64,000 nt of DNA from a bacterium. Lineage in GTDB: Bacteria; Patescibacteriota; Minisyncoccia; Minisyncoccales; CG1-02-41-26. Under the pieces are notes generated by a model. That model searched no databases. It was not told the origin of the DNA and saw only the letters and a program-made list of their open reading frames with translations. The DNA is taken from NCBI GenBank assembly GCA_030619905.1, contig JAUXAO010000001.1:48348-112347 (forward strand). The letters are read 5' to 3'. Both the position numbers and the translations under genes were made by a program. Positions 32,095 through 51,166 of the stretch are shown piece by piece. Every line of letters begins with the position of its first letter. The first letter of the stretch is position 1.

Positions 32095-33402
32095 TTATCC
32101 TATTAAAGAGGCGATAATCGAACCTCTAAATAAAATGGTAACAATTAGACCTATGAATATCAAAATAGCAAATGGCGACGGTTTATATACTTCTAATAGT
32201 TTTATTTCTTTTCCTTTCACAAACTCCTTTAAAAATACTATCTGTTCTTCAGTTAGACCATCCGAATAAATCTTACCAATGGATTTTTTAAATAATCCTT
32301 CTTCTTTGCCTTTTAATTTATTGATTGTTTCTTCGGTCAAGCGCATACCTGATTTTAATTCTTCTATTTTGACTTTTTGAATCTCTTTTTCCTTAACATA
32401 CCAATCAAACGTTTTTCTAAAAGCAAAACCTCCAAAAATGATTATGGCTGTAACACTTAACATGGGTCTTATTATGAGAGCAGGAGATTGATTTAAACCA
32501 ATCCATTTATAGAACAACCAGAGAAGAAGAGCTACAGCTGCTACATAAAAAACCTTTTTAATTTTTTGTAAGAATTTCATTAAAAAAACAAAAACTCCTA
32601 AAAAAGTGATAAGCAAAACCCATTTTTCAAGGCCCAATATAATCGTGAAAAAATAAGTTAAATTTTCACCTATAATACTTTTAAAAAAGAGTCCAAAAAA
32701 ACTAACCATAACAAAGAAAATAACAAGAAGATTAAGAATTTCTTTAAATAGTGAGAAAATGCTCCTTTTAAATTCTTTTTCTCGAGCAATTTTTTCTTTT
32801 TCAGTTAAAGTTTCTTTTTTCCTTATAAAAATCCGACGAATAAAAGTGAAAACAAGTATTATTAAAAATATCCCTAAAGCAATAATGAAAATATTCAATA
32901 ATAAAGCAAAAGAAGGAAAATAAGATAAGTACGTTTTTGAATAAAATCTTAAAGGTAAAAGGAAAGAAAAAAGAGTAAAAAGTTTAGCATCTCCAGCCGA
33001 CCAAACATTCCAAAACCACATTAAAAATCCCATTCCTAAAGCGATGCCTGTATTAAGAGCGACTTCGCCGAGATAAGAAAGTTTAAAAACCGAGAAAGAA
33101 TATGGACTGATTTTAAAATATTCAAGAATCCAAAAAGTAAAATTCCAGAGAATATATAAACTAAAGATTGTTATGCCCCATAAAAAACCAATTTTTATCC
33201 ATTTATTTTTGATCTTGCCATATTTAAAATCTTCAAAACTAGTAATAAAACCAATAATAAAAATAGGAATCAAAAAAATATAATCTGTAAAAAAAAATTT
33301 ACTTAATAGAAACATTTTGAATCGGGCGATATTTATCAGTTGTTCCCTCGACAATATATTTTTTCTTGATTGGCTTAAACTCGTCACTGCCAACTTTTTC
33401 AA
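32095..33402 (-). CDS. polytopic integral membrane protein (about 10 TM helices) at the downstream end of the rSAM block
   Basis: Hydrophobic helices throughout. Same strand as the upstream rSAM gene and overlapping it; the true start is probably an internal Met (MFLLSKFFF). Confidence 0.45.
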   Translation of the reverse strand: MKKLAVTSLSQSRKNILSREQLINIARFKMFLLSKFFFTDYIFLIPIFIIGFITSFEDFKYGKIKNKWIKIGFLWGITIFSLYILWNFTFWILEYFKISPYSFSVFKLSYLGEVALNTGIALGMGFLMWFWNVWSAGDAKLFTLFSFLLPLRFYSKTYLSYFPSFALLLNIFIIALGIFLIILVFTFIRRIFIRKKETLTEKEKIAREKEFKRSIFSLFKEILNLLVIFFVMVSFFGLFFKSIIGENLTYFFTIILGLEKWVLLITFLGVFVFLMKFLQKIKKVFYVAAVALLLWLFYKWIGLNQSPALIIRPMLSVTAIIIFGGFAFRKTFDWYVKEKEIQKVKIEELKSGMRLTEETINKLKGKEEGLFKKSIGKIYSDGLTEEQIVFLKEFVKGKEIKLLEVYKPSPFAILIFIGLIVTILFRGSIIASLIG

Positions 33403-35439: not shown

Positions 35440-36348
35440 TTATTTCTCTTTAAAATCAAGGATAAACCCATCTGTTTTATCTTTTTTAAGATAAGAATAA
35501 AGGGATGAATTATTTTTAAGTATCTCGATCTTTTTTTCTTTAATGACAATCTTATTTCCTTTTATTATTTTATTAAGTAATGAAAAATCTATCGGAGAAA
35601 TCGGAAGAATCACTTTCTTGTAAAATAAGGTATTTTTTCTAACATATCCATCAAGGATAACCCATTTAAAAACATCAAAAAATAAGATTGGCTTAGAAAG
35701 AGTATATGTTACTACTTTTTCCACCTCAGGGGCATATTTTTTTAATAAAGCATTAATCTCTTTACCTGTTTTTATACTCTTCTGACAATTATAACTACAA
35801 GGAATATGGGAAATAAATTGCAGATATACAATAGGGATGGGAAAACGTTTATTCAAAAGAAGATATTGTTCTAATTTTTCATAGTCTTCTTTAGTATAAA
35901 GCCTAGTGGAAAAATTTAACAAATTATTTGTCAAAAAATTAAACTGTTTACTATTTTGATAGGATTGATAAGTTACAATTGGAGAATAACGTTGAAGGTT
36001 ATGTTGAAAAAAATACGAATGATTTTTAATACAACATTCTGGGTACCCTAATAATTTTCCGATTTTTTCTGAATCTTTTCTAGCAGTAAGGGAATTTACT
36101 GCCTCCTTTGCTATTTCTTTTTTCTTTGAAAGAGCACAGACTGTTATTTGTTTATTTGCTATAATTTTTTGTTTACACTCGATACTTAACTCTGGGAATT
36201 CACGGATAATTATTCTCTTTCTTTTTTCATTAAGATCCATGGTAAAACAAGGTTTTATTCCTGCTATAACTGCTAAAATTTCTTGAAGAATTACGCCTGT
36301 TTTAGAGACATTCAATAGTTTTTTTCTAAGTTTTTGGGATGTATTCAT
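35440..36348 (-). CDS. hypothetical protein (no rSAM motif) conserved inside the rSAM block
   Basis: 302 aa; LGYPECC and HIPCSYNCQ Cys motifs; no recognisable family. Confidence 0.4.
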   Translation of the reverse strand: MNTSQKLRKKLLNVSKTGVILQEILAVIAGIKPCFTMDLNEKRKRIIIREFPELSIECKQKIIANKQITVCALSKKKEIAKEAVNSLTARKDSEKIGKLLGYPECCIKNHSYFFQHNLQRYSPIVTYQSYQNSKQFNFLTNNLLNFSTRLYTKEDYEKLEQYLLLNKRFPIPIVYLQFISHIPCSYNCQKSIKTGKEINALLKKYAPEVEKVVTYTLSKPILFFDVFKWVILDGYVRKNTLFYKKVILPISPIDFSLLNKIIKGNKIVIKEKKIEILKNNSSLYSYLKKDKTDGFILDFKEK

Positions 36349-40154: not shown

Positions 40155-41297
40155 TTATTTAAATAATTGCCAGCATTGAGGGTCTGGCAAAAATTGAGGA
40201 TCTTCCAAGTAAGAATCTTTCCAGTATCCATAACTTACACATTTAGCTCCTCCTTGACATTTATCAAAATAAGTACAACTTTGACAACGAGTGTTTATAT
40301 TCCTTGGATTTCTTAATTTTTTCAATTCTTCAGATTTATAGAATATTTCTTCTAAAGATTGTTTTAAAACACTACCAACATAAATTGGCAATCTCCGGCA
40401 GGGATAAACATCACCATTTGGTAAAATTGTCAAAGAAGAGTATCCAGCTACACAGGTATTTGCCTTATATCCTTCCTGGGCTAAAATTCCATCTTCGCAA
40501 CCTATGCCTACACTCAGTTTCGATTTCTGATTGATTAACTTTCTATTAGTTTTCAGAAGGGAGAGATACAATCTTTTTGTCTCTTGAGGAGAAAGGATTA
40601 ATTTCTTCATTTCTTCTCCTCTGCCAAGAGGAATGAATCTTCTTAATCCTAGACTATTTACTCCTAACTTTCTAGCCAGTTCAATTAATAAAGAAATATC
40701 TCTTAAATTCTGTTTAGTCACTGTTACTGAAATACCCGTATTAATTCTATTTTTAACTAGTAATTCTATTGCTTTTGCTATTTTTTTAAAAGTTCCTTTG
40801 CCCCGAATTTCATCATTTTTCTCTCTCATGCCTTCTAAACTTACCTGAGCATAATCAATCTTGAATCTGTTAAGTTTAATTATTTTCTTATCGTCAAGTA
40901 ATATACCATTAGTAAGGATTCCATATCTAGTTTTTTCTCTATTTTGGTAACATTTCTTCAGAAATTCAAAAAAATCATCTCTGAGCAATGGTTCGCCACC
41001 AGTAATAGAAATTCTTGATTTGTCGCAGGGAAGGTTCCATTTTTTTAGAAGTTTCATGTAATTATCAAGAATTTCAAAAAGCTTACTTAAAAAAAGCTCA
41101 TTTTTCAAAAATTTCTCATCAAAATAACAATGCTTACAGGACAAATTGCATCTTTCCGTAATATGCCATTGTAGATGGAAAGAATCTGGTTGATATTGAG
41201 ATTCAGTAAACATTTTCTTATAATAACACACTAGTCCTATTCTGAGAAATATTTTTTGGATTATACTTTCAAAATAGAAAATCCCTTGCCAAAACAA
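40155..41297 (-). CDS. radical SAM/SPASM-domain peptide-maturase-like protein
   Basis: CNLSCKHC; GGEPL; SPASM-type C-terminus (CVAGYSSLTILPNGDVYPC ... CQSCTYFDKCQGGAKC). Confidence 0.8.
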   Translation of the reverse strand: MFWQGIFYFESIIQKIFLRIGLVCYYKKMFTESQYQPDSFHLQWHITERCNLSCKHCYFDEKFLKNELFLSKLFEILDNYMKLLKKWNLPCDKSRISITGGEPLLRDDFFEFLKKCYQNREKTRYGILTNGILLDDKKIIKLNRFKIDYAQVSLEGMREKNDEIRGKGTFKKIAKAIELLVKNRINTGISVTVTKQNLRDISLLIELARKLGVNSLGLRRFIPLGRGEEMKKLILSPQETKRLYLSLLKTNRKLINQKSKLSVGIGCEDGILAQEGYKANTCVAGYSSLTILPNGDVYPCRRLPIYVGSVLKQSLEEIFYKSEELKKLRNPRNINTRCQSCTYFDKCQGGAKCVSYGYWKDSYLEDPQFLPDPQCWQLFK

Positions 41298-41311
41298 ACT
41301 GACAAGGGATT

Positions 41312-42502
41312 TTAATCACGTCCTACTATTTTTGAGAGACATCTGATTGATCCGCCAAATTTGGTAATTCCCATACCTATTTCTACTTCTTTTACTCTAA
41401 AACCTAAAGATTCGTAAATTTCTATTGCCTTCTTATCTAGTGACTCTATCCCGTATATTGGTAAATACACAACTTTTTCCTTTCCTTTTTCTTCAATTAG
41501 AACATTATTATATGTAATAAAATGAGCAAATCTCCCGTGCAAAATCTGAGTAGAATAAATAACTCCAAAGTAAGGTATTCTTATTACTCGAAATCCCTGA
41601 TTTTCAAGTTTATCTTTTGCCTTCTCTAGTGCTCCAGAGATATCTTCGGAAAGATTTAATTCAATCTGTTTTCTAAAAATCGGTGAATCAAGAATTGAAG
41701 GATCACCTGTTTTAAGCAATAAATCTACTGCTAATCTTGAATCTCCTAAAAGCAGAGTCTTCTTTCCGATTGGAGTTAAATACATATCGATATGATCAAA
41801 TGGGGCTCTATGATTCTTGTCTCCAATGATAACCACATTTTTACCAAACATTTCTTCTAATTTCTGGATGATTTCTTGTTCATCTAATTCTAATCTACTA
41901 TTTTCCTCAATCAGAGAATATCCTATGAATACATTTCTATCATTAGATACGATGTTCCCGCCATCGAAATCTAGATCGGATACAATACTTGTCATATGAG
42001 GATATGTTTCAGATAAAGCCCTTGAAACCGCTGAATACCTTTCTGATGCAGGCACTATAAGTGTAATTCCTTTATCTTTGTTTTTAACAATAACATACCC
42101 ATCTTGTCCCCAAGGAGAAAGTTTTTCCTCGCTTTCTGGAATCAGTAATGTTCTAATAGTATTGTGGATATTCCATTTGTCTTTTATTATTTCGGGCAAT
42201 CTTTCAAAATACGACTGAGATTCGGTAATTATAGTTATCTCTACATTACTATCAAGTTCTTCTAGTATCGATCGGAAGTAACTTAGTGAGACAGACCAAA
42301 AATAATTGTTTTTTGATTGTGGAATCTGAAATACAATGTGTTGAATTTTACCTTGATTGTCTGATAATATCTTCTCTGTTTCATATCTCCGAAAAATAAG
42401 GTCTGCAAATCCGGGAACGGTCTCATTCAAAACGACCAATAAGATTATCAAAAAAATCAACGAAACTACCAAAAATGATTGTCTCTTCATCTTTTTCACC
42501 AC
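41312..42502 (-). CDS. guanidino-group-modifying enzyme superfamily protein (agmatine deiminase / PAD_porph-like), membrane-anchored
   Basis: N-terminal TM helix; WGQDG, DFDGGNIVSNDRNVFIG, HIDMYL and C-terminal GGSIRCLS (catalytic Cys in a GGxIHCxT-like context). Confidence 0.55.
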   Translation of the reverse strand: MVKKMKRQSFLVVSLIFLIILLVVLNETVPGFADLIFRRYETEKILSDNQGKIQHIVFQIPQSKNNYFWSVSLSYFRSILEELDSNVEITIITESQSYFERLPEIIKDKWNIHNTIRTLLIPESEEKLSPWGQDGYVIVKNKDKGITLIVPASERYSAVSRALSETYPHMTSIVSDLDFDGGNIVSNDRNVFIGYSLIEENSRLELDEQEIIQKLEEMFGKNVVIIGDKNHRAPFDHIDMYLTPIGKKTLLLGDSRLAVDLLLKTGDPSILDSPIFRKQIELNLSEDISGALEKAKDKLENQGFRVIRIPYFGVIYSTQILHGRFAHFITYNNVLIEEKGKEKVVYLPIYGIESLDKKAIEIYESLGFRVKEVEIGMGITKFGGSIRCLSKIVGRD

Positions 42503-42669
42503 CTCTTTTATTTTTAATTTTCTGAAAATAAGAAATTCTTATATTTTCTTATTTTCCAATCTCTATTATAGCGCAAAATTAAACTGATGTCAAGATTCTA
42601 TTTTTCAATTAAAGGAATTCTTGTTTAAATCAATCTGCTGAGAAGATAATATGCTTTATTTTGATATAT

Positions 42670-47811: not shown

Positions 47812-48272
47812 TATATTAAATACTAAAAAACATTAAAACTATTATTCTCTCTATTCTTTTTATCTATAGAATTTCTAAATATTCATACTAATAGATTTTA
47901 TGATACTTCTTTTTGAATCGAATTCAATAGACTTGAACCGATAAAAAAATGAACCTGCAGATACGACCGTTATTATTTTATTTTTAGGATCACCAGAATT
48001 TGTAGGAAGTGAGAAATTTATTATAGTAATATCTTTTTTCCTACTCATAATTTATTTATCTTTTATAACTATATCTAAAAAATACTTTATAAATAATTAA
48101 TAACTATTTCCTCCTAAGATGATAGTTATGTCCATCAGAAATACTTTTTACTTAAATAAAAAATAAACACTTAATTTCTTCATCGTTGGATTTGATAATA
48201 AGTGTAAAAACTTGAGATAACTTTTTCAATTTTTGCTATAAAATGCTTACGAGATCAATTACCTTAGAGATG

Positions 48273-48818
48273 TTATTCTATAATCAATTTTAGCTCGGCT
48301 ATAATGGAATTAAACATTCCAACTAATAAATCGTCGTCTTTCGATACAGCAATGGCTTGGTCTCTACCAGGATAGACTGGTTCTGTAAAAAGTATTAGTT
48401 CTTTTCTTTCCTCTGAAATTGTTAAGTCAAAAATTGCATCGCATTTTCTTTCGCTCAGAGCAGGGATAATTTTAGGCCAAGGAACATAATAATAGGTAAT
48501 CTTTATGCCTAATCCTTCTTCTATTGCTTCAGCAATATCTTTATACAATACAGAAGGCACATAGAATCTATCTTGACAGATAGTTATTTCTTTTTTCACA
48601 GCAATATCAGAATTCTCTTTTAACCAACTAACCAATAATTCTTTCTGTTGACCTTCAAGACTAAAATCTAACGGCAGGAATTTCTCTCTGACCTGAAGAT
48701 CTGTTTCAGGAGGAAGATTATTATTAGAAAGAGAAAAATAAATGACACAGCCTAAAACTGCTGAAATAATAATCAAGATAACAAGTATTTTCTTATTTCT
48801 AAAATTAAATAATTTCAT
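48273..48818 (-). CDS. membrane-anchored fragment of a family-3 solute-binding protein (SBP_bac_3 N-lobe only)
   Basis: N-terminal TM helix; the CDAIFDLTISEERKELILFTEPVY block matches the SBP_bac_3 signature D-x6-T-x2-R-x5-F-[ST]-x-P-[YV]; the residue preceding the final P is E rather than the usual S/T (…FTEPVY), so the fit is close but not exact. Only 181 aa, against about 250-280 for a full SBP. Confidence 0.45.
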   Translation of the reverse strand: MKLFNFRNKKILVILIIISAVLGCVIYFSLSNNNLPPETDLQVREKFLPLDFSLEGQQKELLVSWLKENSDIAVKKEITICQDRFYVPSVLYKDIAEAIEEGLGIKITYYYVPWPKIIPALSERKCDAIFDLTISEERKELILFTEPVYPGRDQAIAVSKDDDLLVGMFNSIIAELKLIIE

Positions 48819-50205: not shown

Positions 50206-50745
50206 TTATATTTCTGCCCCAACTCCCGCACAACAAGGACAAGCACTACCATGGGAAGAATGATTAGAATGGGAGTCGTGAGAACTATGGGAACCATGAG
50301 AACCATGAGAAGAATGAGAAGAATGGGAGGCATGAGAACAATGAGATTGATGAGAACTATGAGAACTGTGAGATCCATGAGATCCATGAGATCCATGGGA
50401 AGAATGGGAAGAATGGGAACTGTGCGAGCCATGCGAGCCGTGGGAAACATGGGATCCATGAGAGCCATGCGAGCCATGAGAGACATGAGAAGAATGGGAG
50501 CCATGCGAGCCATGGGAAACATGAGAAGAATGGGATGTATGGGAGGCATGGGAAGAATGGGAAGAGTGGTCACATTTCCACTCTGCCTGAACATCCTTAG
50601 CGATCATAGACCCTCCTACAGCTGCACCTAACACAAGAAGCATTGTTCCTGCTTTAACAATGTCTTTTTTATTGACATTTCCTTCTTCAGAGGTAAGAAA
50701 GGCTTTAATATTCTTTTTAAATTTTGGCAATAATTTGTTTTCCAT
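50206..50745 (-). CDS. His-Xaa-Ser repeat precursor-like protein (HxsA-like), copy 1: leader followed by about 35 consecutive HxS triplets and a Cys-rich tail
   Basis: MENKLLPKFKKNIKAFLTSEEGNVNKKDIVKAGTMLLVLGAAVGGSMIAKDVQAEWKCD, then HSS HSS HAS HTS HSS HVS HGS ... HGS, then ACPCCAGVGAEI. The leader is shared with copy 2. Confidence 0.8.
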   Translation of the reverse strand: MENKLLPKFKKNIKAFLTSEEGNVNKKDIVKAGTMLLVLGAAVGGSMIAKDVQAEWKCDHSSHSSHASHTSHSSHVSHGSHGSHSSHVSHGSHGSHGSHVSHGSHGSHSSHSSHSSHGSHGSHGSHSSHSSHQSHCSHASHSSHSSHGSHGSHSSHDSHSNHSSHGSACPCCAGVGAEI

Positions 50746-50770: not shown

Positions 50771-51166
50771 TTAACACCAACCACCCTGAGCATGAGAACT
50801 ATGAGAACCGTGTGAGGCATGAGAACAATGGGAACTATGGGAACGATGGCAAGAACTATGAGATCCATGGGAAGAATGGGAAGAATGGGAACTGTGCGAG
50901 CCATGCGAGCCATGAGAGACATGAGAAGAATGGGAGCCATGCGAGCCATGAGAGACATGAGAAGAATGGGAAGAATGGGAACCATGGGAAGAATGTTCAC
51001 ACTCAGGCCACTGGGCTTGCACTTCACGAGCAATCATAGACCCTCCTACAGCTGCACCTAACACAAGAAGCATTGTTCCTGCTTTAACAATGTCTTTTTT
51101 ATTGACATTTCCTTCTTCAGAGGTAAGAAAGGCTTTAATATTCTTTTTAAATTTTGGTAGCTTCAT
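50771..51166 (-). CDS. His-Xaa-Ser repeat precursor-like protein (HxsA-like), copy 2: same leader followed by about 22 HxS triplets and a Cys/Trp tail
   Basis: MKLPKFKKNIKAFLTSEEGNVNKKDIVKAGTMLLVLGAAVGGSMIAREVQAQWPECE, then HSS HGS HSS HSS HVS ..., then AQGGWC. Confidence 0.8.
   Translation of the reverse strand: MKLPKFKKNIKAFLTSEEGNVNKKDIVKAGTMLLVLGAAVGGSMIAREVQAQWPECEHSSHGSHSSHSSHVSHGSHGSHSSHVSHGSHGSHSSHSSHSSHGSHSSCHRSHSSHCSHASHGSHSSHAQGGWC

Follow-up and report, generated by a model that had tools for sequence, protein, structure and literature searches.

A putative extracytoplasmic pentein enzyme of the PAD_porph family, encoded as a self-contained cassette in an expanded HxsA4-type radical-SAM cluster of a CPR lineage

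Between approximately 33.3 and 56.2 kb of the window (the whole 64,000-nucleotide stretch analyzed here, roughly 30% GC), all genes lie on the minus strand. This block holds two HxsA4-type His-Xaa-Ser (HxS) repeat precursors (NF038313, above the curated cut-off), with 35 and 22 HxS units, and encodes about 15 radical-SAM (rSAM) proteins akin to HxsB/PapB, HxsC/HxsC4 and SPASM maturases, all of which score below the curated cut-offs. Judged by its gene content, the block is a much-expanded HxsA4-type His-Xaa-Ser rSAM cluster. Named homologues of one neighboring rSAM protein come from Candidatus Nealsonbacteria, the Parcubacteria group and Woesearchaeota; the window resembles DNA of a small-genome bacterium, in all probability a Parcubacteria-like (CPR) one. 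A membrane-anchored SBP_bac_3 fragment is encoded at 48273-48818. A sequence-only reading of this DNA had placed an agmatine-deiminase/PAD-superfamily enzyme among rSAM peptide-maturation genes; the direct flanks of that enzyme gene are indeed rSAM genes related to HxsB and HxsC/HxsC4. The features of the gene, in the direction of transcription, are as follows.

42565..42593, minus strand: sigma-70-type promoter, TTGACA-17-TATAAT, with 12/12 consensus matches (scan), within the 167-bp upstream gap
42524..42556, minus strand: A/U-rich hairpin or palindrome (12 bp) within the 5' UTR, after the -10 hexamer and before the Shine-Dalgarno (SD) sequence (fold -10 kcal/mol, z -2.5)
41312..42490, minus strand: coding sequence of the PAD_porph-family pentein enzyme (ORF scan, identity to P0001, Pfam, model)
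42422..42475, minus strand: N-terminal hydrophobic helix, a predicted signal anchor, about aa 10-27, FLVVSLIFLIILLVVL, preceded by KKMKR
42101..42112, minus strand: W131-G-Q-D134, with D134 the putative first guanidinium-binding acidic residue, equivalent to Asp94 of Medicago AIH (MtAIH) (invariance, profile alignment, PMC6447857)
41786..41794, minus strand: H237-I-D239, the putative catalytic His and second Asp, equivalent to His224/Asp226 of MtAIH (invariance, alignment, PMC6447857)
41339..41341, minus strand: codon of Cys388, the predicted nucleophile, equivalent to Cys366 of MtAIH (invariance; alignment of GGalRC with GGnIHC)
41278..41313, minus strand: intrinsic-terminator-like 15-bp hairpin that begins at the stop codon and is followed by the T-rich TTTTCTATTTTG (scan and folding)

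A 396-codon ORF fills 41312..42502. Translation bears out this ORF and the four motifs that had been quoted from it, WGQDG (aa 131-135), DFDGGNIV (177-184), HIDMYL (237-242) and GGSIRCLS (383-390), and adds the strand (minus), which the sequence-only reading left unstated. Residues of the enzyme are numbered throughout by the 396-codon ORF. The likelier start is ATG 42490, which gives a product of 392 aa identical to a database protein (P0001). It is preferred over GTG 42502 (396 aa) because the latter falls within the SD sequence GAGGTG (42505-42500), with ATG 42490 lying 9 nt further downstream. The N-terminal transmembrane helix proposed earlier is apparent as a hydrophobic stretch in the translation (Kyte-Doolittle maximum 3.67), and is modeled by AlphaFold2 as a helix spanning residues 3-28. 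GC content of the enzyme gene (0.31-0.34) is the same as that of neighboring genes, so composition shows no sign of recent transfer.

From promoter to intrinsic terminator, the gene has the sequence signals of a self-contained transcription unit. The -35 and -10 hexamers are invariant in the orthologue loci L001, L005 and L007, and the terminator is kept in the same three, with one compensatory pair change in L007. The terminator hairpin has a folding energy of -20.5 kcal/mol (z -4.2), and none of 200 shuffled sequences folds as well (0/200). Both upstream of the -35 hexamer and downstream of the terminator, L005 and L007 are unrelated in sequence to the window. The 5' UTR hairpin, largely kept across four loci, might serve as an operator or act within the mRNA. 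Scanned against Rfam, the gene with its UTRs gave nothing above threshold and no guanidine riboswitch. TTG 41297 was considered as the start of the downstream SPASM rSAM gene, which would leave a 14-bp gap suggestive of translational coupling. It was rejected because the orthologues start at an internal Met (window position ~41213), leaving a gap of ~98 bp that contains the terminator.

The superfamily assignment made from the sequence alone is upheld by Pfam, by the AlphaFold2 model and by Foldseek. The protein matches PF04371 (PAD_porph) over aa 158-390 with 30.8 bits (gathering cut-off 25; E 2.3e-7), and the same family is precomputed for most of its homologues. The AlphaFold2 model, built on 44 homologues, has a mean pLDDT of 87.8 and a pTM of 0.84, and consists of the anchor helix and one propeller domain only. 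In a Foldseek search of the PDB, the best match is the agmatine deiminase of C. jejuni (6B10; E 8e-17, TM 0.74-0.76), followed by 1XKN, 1ZBR, plant agmatine iminohydrolases, PPAD, human PADs, DDAH and the amidinotransferase HsvA. All 42 matches at E ≤ 1e-3 are penteins (agmatine deiminases, PPAD, PAD2/3/4, DDAH, HsvA), and the best 27 are agmatine deiminases or PPAD.

D134, H237, D239 and C388, the canonical residues of penteins, do not vary across the 44-sequence alignment, in which homologues from outside the CPR clade share 23-35% identity with the enzyme. Other invariant positions are W131, G181, G182, R308, P310, Y331-N332-N333, G384 and R387. In a PDB profile search, the enzyme motifs align to the WxRD, EGG, GH(V/I)D and GG.IHC motifs of agmatine deiminases (6NIB, 1XKN, 6B10), so that D134, H237, D239 and C388 correspond to Asp94, His224, Asp226 and Cys366 of Medicago AIH (the 6NIB SEQRES is offset by 7 residues), which are its named guanidinium-binding and catalytic residues (PMC6447857). 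The Cys/His/Asp triad is thus conserved by alignment and fold match, and from these the four residues would be expected to cluster in three dimensions. The Cys in GGSIRCLS, earlier named as catalytic, is C388; it is the sole cysteine of the protein.

Purifying selection acts on the gene (dN/dS of 0.13-0.25 among five orthologues). The fold match, the invariant catalytic residues and the low dN/dS together make it very likely that the protein is an active guanidino-group hydrolase. A decaying or non-catalytic passenger gene might be suspected from the patchy distribution and from the surroundings in L005-L007, where the gene adjoins an IS-like HTH ORF, a SPASM (rSAM) gene fragment and an APH-like kinase. 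This reading is extremely unlikely, as the ORF is intact in all orthologues and its promoter, SD sequence and terminator are conserved along with the catalytic residues.

Another pentein chemistry on a guanidino or amidino compound, such as amidino transfer or a dihydrolase reaction in place of simple deimination, was also weighed. The Cys-His-Asp set is common to hydrolases and amidinotransferases (PMC6447857), the subfamily is uncharacterized, the invariant R308 and R387 have no assigned role, and HsvA and DDAH are among the weaker fold matches. On the other hand, the amidinotransferase and DDAH matches reach TM values of only 0.39-0.47, while hydrolases make up both PF04371, the nearest sequence family, and all 27 of the best structural matches. 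We therefore regard chemistry of this kind as distinctly improbable, and hydrolysis as the probable reaction. R308 and R387 might mark a carboxylate-binding site, as in enzymes acting on free or C-terminal arginine.

The enzyme belongs to a sizeable, distinct and uncharacterized subfamily within PAD_porph, as delimited by profile searches, and this subfamily is predicted to be exported. An exhaustive profile search returned 581 clusters (50% identity) at E ≤ 1e-30, a lower bound on the size of the subfamily, and 2221 at E ≤ 1e-10. Among species-representative genomes searched with a narrower alignment (A2), members are found mostly in Planctomycetota (Phycisphaerae), with scattered occurrences in Verrucomicrobiota, Armatimonadota, Vulcanimicrobiota, Myxococcota and others; this search returned no CPR genome with a subfamily member. 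A scan of the genome collection using the single protein as query found no relative. Near the Phycisphaerae members, the genes that recur are those for a histidine kinase (at 22 loci) and an OmpR-type regulator (at 20), and less often for a glyoxalase/VOC protein (10), an acidic-tailed small secreted protein (9) and a zinc-finger protein of the DksA/TraR type (5). ATP-grasp ligases are encoded near the gene in two family loci, with L002 adding a lysine-aminomutase-like rSAM protein and an S58 peptidase. L053 is the sole non-CPR family locus with rSAM-like hits, and these are weak.

A strongly hydrophobic N-terminal segment is present in 136 of 166 full-length subfamily members, and many of the remaining sequences look like truncated gene calls. 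Several members have a lipobox Cys or a Sec-type cleavage motif. Since signal peptides, lipoboxes or anchors occur in most members, the catalytic domain probably faces outward and works outside the cytoplasm. This topology rests mainly on the homologues because the charge bias around the enzyme's own helix (2-4 K/R before it, 2 after) does not make the positive-inside rule decisive.

The polyamine chemistry that the sequence-only reading had offered as one option would make the enzyme an ordinary agmatine deiminase (AguA), which supplies either putrescine synthesis or an energy pathway based on agmatine deimination. Agmatine deiminases are the best structural matches, and some database entries call the homologues 'agmatine deiminase family protein'. 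Yet identity to solved agmatine deiminases is only 13-18%, and no NCBIfam AguA model is matched at E ≤ 1, the sole return being a DDAH fragment of 13.8 bits. In MtAIH, Asp220, located before the catalytic His in the DxTDGH motif, binds the primary amine of agmatine (PMC6447857). Where agmatine deiminases have DxTDGH(V/I)D, the enzyme has NHRAPFDHID, which is unconserved in the family, so that Asp220 has no conserved counterpart, although the alignment of this loop is uncertain. The residue preceding the catalytic Cys also differs (Arg in the enzyme, His in agmatine deiminases). Polyamine and arginine-deiminase pathway genes are absent from the 64-kb window and from the conserved neighbors in 64 family loci, including genes for N-carbamoylputrescine amidase, putrescine carbamoyltransferase, carbamate kinase and an antiporter, so the orthologues are not restricted to polyamine operons. 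Together with the export signals in the family, this indicates that the enzyme is not an AguA orthologue, and we consider a role as an ordinary agmatine deiminase very unlikely.

Close orthologues of the enzyme form a narrow clade of six protein clusters with 74-100% identity. The seven readable loci of these orthologues cover five of the six clusters (the P0003 contig bears only the gene), and in all seven, as in the window, the gene sits inside an rSAM cluster in the same orientation, although its immediate neighbors are rearranged. Given this location, there may be a functional link between the enzyme and the rSAM cluster.

The adjacent HxsC4-like rSAM protein has 2450 homologues at E ≤ 1e-20, and we surveyed 80 metagenomic loci with its orthologues (57-86% identity), most of which are multi-rSAM clusters; HxS precursors were found within the fetched flank in 28 of the 80. 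Only one of these loci (L084, from the same narrow clade) contains the enzyme gene, and 30 of the 31 related CPR clusters with 4.5 kb or more of upstream flank lack it. The slot is filled by unrelated lipoprotein genes on the opposite strand in L067 and L068, the rSAM proteins of which are 75-86% identical to those of the window. Across the wider enzyme family, Hxs-type neighbors are absent from the ~60 family loci (64 surveyed) outside four CPR loci. The enzyme itself matches no Hxs model in NCBIfam, and PADLOC returned no match.

Because the gene is its own transcription unit, has a narrow phyletic pattern and belongs to a wider family unlinked to Hxs or rSAM genes, the enzyme is probably not part of the core machinery of the cluster. 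The description that fits the gene best is that of a cassette, specific to the lineage and expressed autonomously, which occupies a variable slot of a CPR HxsA4-type cluster as an accessory or a passenger.

A dedicated tailoring role had been suggested from the placement of the gene. After export, for example, the enzyme might citrullinate the HRS unit of copy 2 or some other Arg, or it might complete the rSAM-matured protein at the cell surface in a different way. All close orthologues with readable flanks reside in the same type of cluster despite rearrangement around them, and the precursors carry a signal-like hydrophobic segment, so that product and enzyme could meet outside the cell. Moreover, the essential +8 Da modification of the E. 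coli HXS system maps to SHRSS (PMC13128918), and copy 2 contains CHRSH.

The arginine content of the precursors points the other way. As had been observed from the sequence, they are nearly free of Arg, with a single HRS in copy 2: copy 1 lacks Arg altogether, and of the two in copy 2 one belongs to the leader (IAREVQA) and the other to CHRSH. In clusters lacking the enzyme gene, HRS accounts for 1 of 811 HxS units in 28 precursor-like ORFs. No Arg enrichment that could serve as a substrate signature was found in precursors, whether the enzyme gene is present (both precursors of the window, and copy 1 of L001 as a C-terminal fragment) or absent. The related CPR clusters without the gene still encode very similar precursors and rSAM proteins, and the canonical HXS system requires only HxsA-D. 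Taken with the separate promoter and terminator and with the wider family's lack of Hxs/rSAM linkage (apart from the weak hits in L053), these results lend the tailoring proposal weak support, and we consider it unlikely.

We favor, with moderate confidence, the reading that the gene encodes a signal-anchored, outward-facing pentein hydrolase of a distinct exported PAD_porph subfamily, acting on an arginine-type substrate as an accessory or passenger with its own promoter and not as a core maturase. If it works as agmatine deiminases and PPAD do, such an enzyme would hold the guanidinium group between Asp134 and Asp239 while Cys388 attacks the guanidinium carbon, giving an S-alkylthiouronium intermediate bound covalently. 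With His237 as general acid/base, ammonia would leave and a ureido (citrulline-type) product would form. The probable substrate is an extracytoplasmic guanidino group of the arginine type, whether of peptidyl, C-terminal or free arginine, with agmatine as a further possibility. The gene would be transcribed alone, from the consensus promoter to the intrinsic terminator. In this reading the fold, the conservation of the catalytic residues, the purifying selection, the cassette layout and the phyletic pattern are direct results of the analysis, and the outward topology, hydrolysis in place of amidino transfer and the class of substrate are inferences.

A more speculative version, which we hold to be rather doubtful, is that the enzyme represents an unstudied branch of exported penteins with a substrate other than agmatine or C-terminal arginine. 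It would have been captured in this CPR lineage, perhaps with the SBP_bac_3 fragment, and its target at the cell surface would be the HxS protein after rSAM maturation and export. It could, for example, neutralize the Arg of HRS, the counterpart of the essential modified SHRSS motif in the E. coli antiphage effector HxsA.

Action of the enzyme on the HxS product, if real, would be the first case in a His-Xaa-Ser system of tailoring that is extracytoplasmic and carried out by a non-rSAM enzyme; this family was tied to antiphage defense only recently. Its likelier value is that the gene flags a sizeable uncharacterized subfamily of guanidino-modifying enzymes with predicted export, and that the large CPR rSAM cluster has a variable slot taking self-contained gene cassettes. 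In annotating this cluster, the enzyme gene should not be counted as a core maturase.

Among known systems, agmatine deiminases (6B10; C. tepidum 1XKN; plant AIH 6NIB/1VKP; E. faecalis 2JER) share with the enzyme the five-bladed pentein fold (TM values reach 0.76) and an identical Asp/His/Asp/Cys set, in WxxD, (E/D)GG, HxD and G..xC motifs. Agmatine deiminases are cytoplasmic; the enzyme differs from them in its N-terminal signal anchor and in lacking a polyamine-pathway context. PPAD of Porphyromonas gingivalis (4YT9, 5AK7) belongs to the same Pfam family (PF04371) and is a structural match at E 1e-14. It is exported and acts on arginine outside the cytoplasm, as may the enzyme, whose export is predicted from family signals and lipoboxes. 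Two further domains are present in PPAD, one Ig-like and the other a C-terminal domain for type IX secretion, and PPAD binds a C-terminal carboxylate via Arg152/Arg154. In contrast, the enzyme (392 aa) is modeled with just one catalytic domain, ~350 aa long and preceded by a membrane anchor, with no Ig-like or T9SS C-terminal domain.

Bacterial PADs are reported to citrullinate citrulassin lasso peptides, a precedent for deimination of peptidyl arginine in RiPP tailoring (bioRxiv 10.1101/2020.07.16.207027, PMC12971885). The citrulassin substrates contain a defined Arg, whereas the cores here have 0-1 Arg.

The surrounding genes share HxsA4-type precursors and HxsB- and HxsC/HxsC4-like rSAM proteins with the HXS system and with the NCBIfam HxsA4 and HxsC4 families. 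The canonical four-gene HXS (HxsA-D) is an antiphage system that contains no pentein enzyme, and in which rSAM-matured periplasmic HxsA blocks the entry of phage DNA (PMC13128918). The HxS product of the window is probably exported, like HxsA, but where canonical HXS consists of four proteins, the present cluster has ~15 rSAM genes and precursors with 22-35 HxS units. The pentein gene, present in 1 of the 31 informative CPR loci, is not a recurrent component of Hxs-type clusters.

The immediate surroundings of the membrane-anchored pentein gene were compared with those of its close CPR orthologues (L001 and L005-L007), in which the following features were located (locus coordinates).

L005 and L006 9152-9843, L007 9134-9436 (intervals of the upstream features of each locus): partial SPASM rSAM gene, 5' of the pentein cassette
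L005-L007 11388-12296: APH-family kinase gene, downstream of the cassette in place of the SPASM rSAM gene
L001 2653-4682, L005 1457-3486, L007 1513-3543: one gene for a membrane protein of the DUF6580 family and one for a B12-binding radical-SAM protein

The SPASM fragment shows 56-57% identity over ~100 amino acids, and in L005 and L006 the region upstream of the cassette also holds an IS-transposase-like HTH_23/28/29 ORF on the opposite strand. Together with the kinase replacement downstream, these features point to the pentein slot as a site of recombination. The extra DUF6580/B12-binding radical-SAM pair of the orthologous clusters sits between an SBP_bac_3 fragment gene and the 620-aa HxsB-like gene; neither member of the pair is present in the window, where 47812-48272 holds just a 57-aa ORF.

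The window holds the following features in and around the cluster (window coordinates, all on the minus strand).

32095-33402: polytopic membrane protein of 435 aa, at the cluster end
35440-36348: DUF483 protein (PF04467, 29 bits)
42524-42556: conserved A/U-rich inverted repeat, AAUAAGAAA...UUUCUUAUU
48273-48818: SBP_bac_3-type protein of 181 aa; hydrophobic helix at the N-terminus, partial SBP_bac_3 domain
50206-50745 and 50771-51166: HxsA4-type precursors, with similar ones in L069-L143

The partial domain of the SBP_bac_3-type protein (PF00497, 51 bits) is of the Lys/Arg/Orn/His-binding type. Its gene was seen only in the pentein-bearing clusters (L001, L005-L007) and in 0 of 80 other related loci, whose flank coverage is limited; the two genes may have been acquired jointly, with the fragment as a second surface-exposed accessory. 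The inverted repeat lies downstream of the pentein gene's -10 box and ahead of its SD. It has no Rfam match and may act either as an operator or as a hairpin in the mRNA.

Other members of the wider pentein family occur in Planctomycetota. In the Phycisphaerae loci (L008, L009, L012-L043), the flanks often hold genes for a histidine kinase with an OmpR-type regulator, for a glyoxalase/VOC protein and for a zinc-finger protein of the DksA/TraR type; directly 5' of the pentein-family gene there is often one for a small secreted protein whose C-terminal tail is strongly acidic. This neighbourhood may represent a regulated envelope module. One further Planctomycetota MAG locus has a different set 3' of its pentein homologue, preceded by a sigma-54 activator.

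L002 9250-13502: two D-Ala-D-Ala-ligase-type ATP-grasp genes, a lysine-2,3-aminomutase-like rSAM gene and a peptidase S58 (DmpA-like) gene

This set may form an amino-acid or peptide modification operon.

Within the cluster itself, the 435-aa membrane protein has no Pfam match and contains a GDAKLF motif resembling the sequence around the active site of prepilin-type aspartic peptidases (family A24); the protein, kept in L001, L068 and ~15 further loci, is a candidate precursor leader peptidase. The DUF483 gene, which lies among the HxsC4-like rSAM genes, is kept in L001, L068, L146 and ~19 related loci. The HxsA4-type precursors of the window and of L069-L143 share a conserved leader (KKNIKAFLTSEEGxxxKK), followed by a hydrophobic stretch that closes with an AxA-like site, 8-50 HxS units and, frequently, a Cys-rich tail. 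The adjacent HxsC4-like rSAM has 2450 homologues, and both it and the precursors are widely distributed among metagenomic contigs of Parcubacteria/Nealsonbacteria-like and Woesearchaeota type. Compared with the canonical four-gene HXS antiphage system (HxsA-D), these HxsA4-type clusters are much more expanded.
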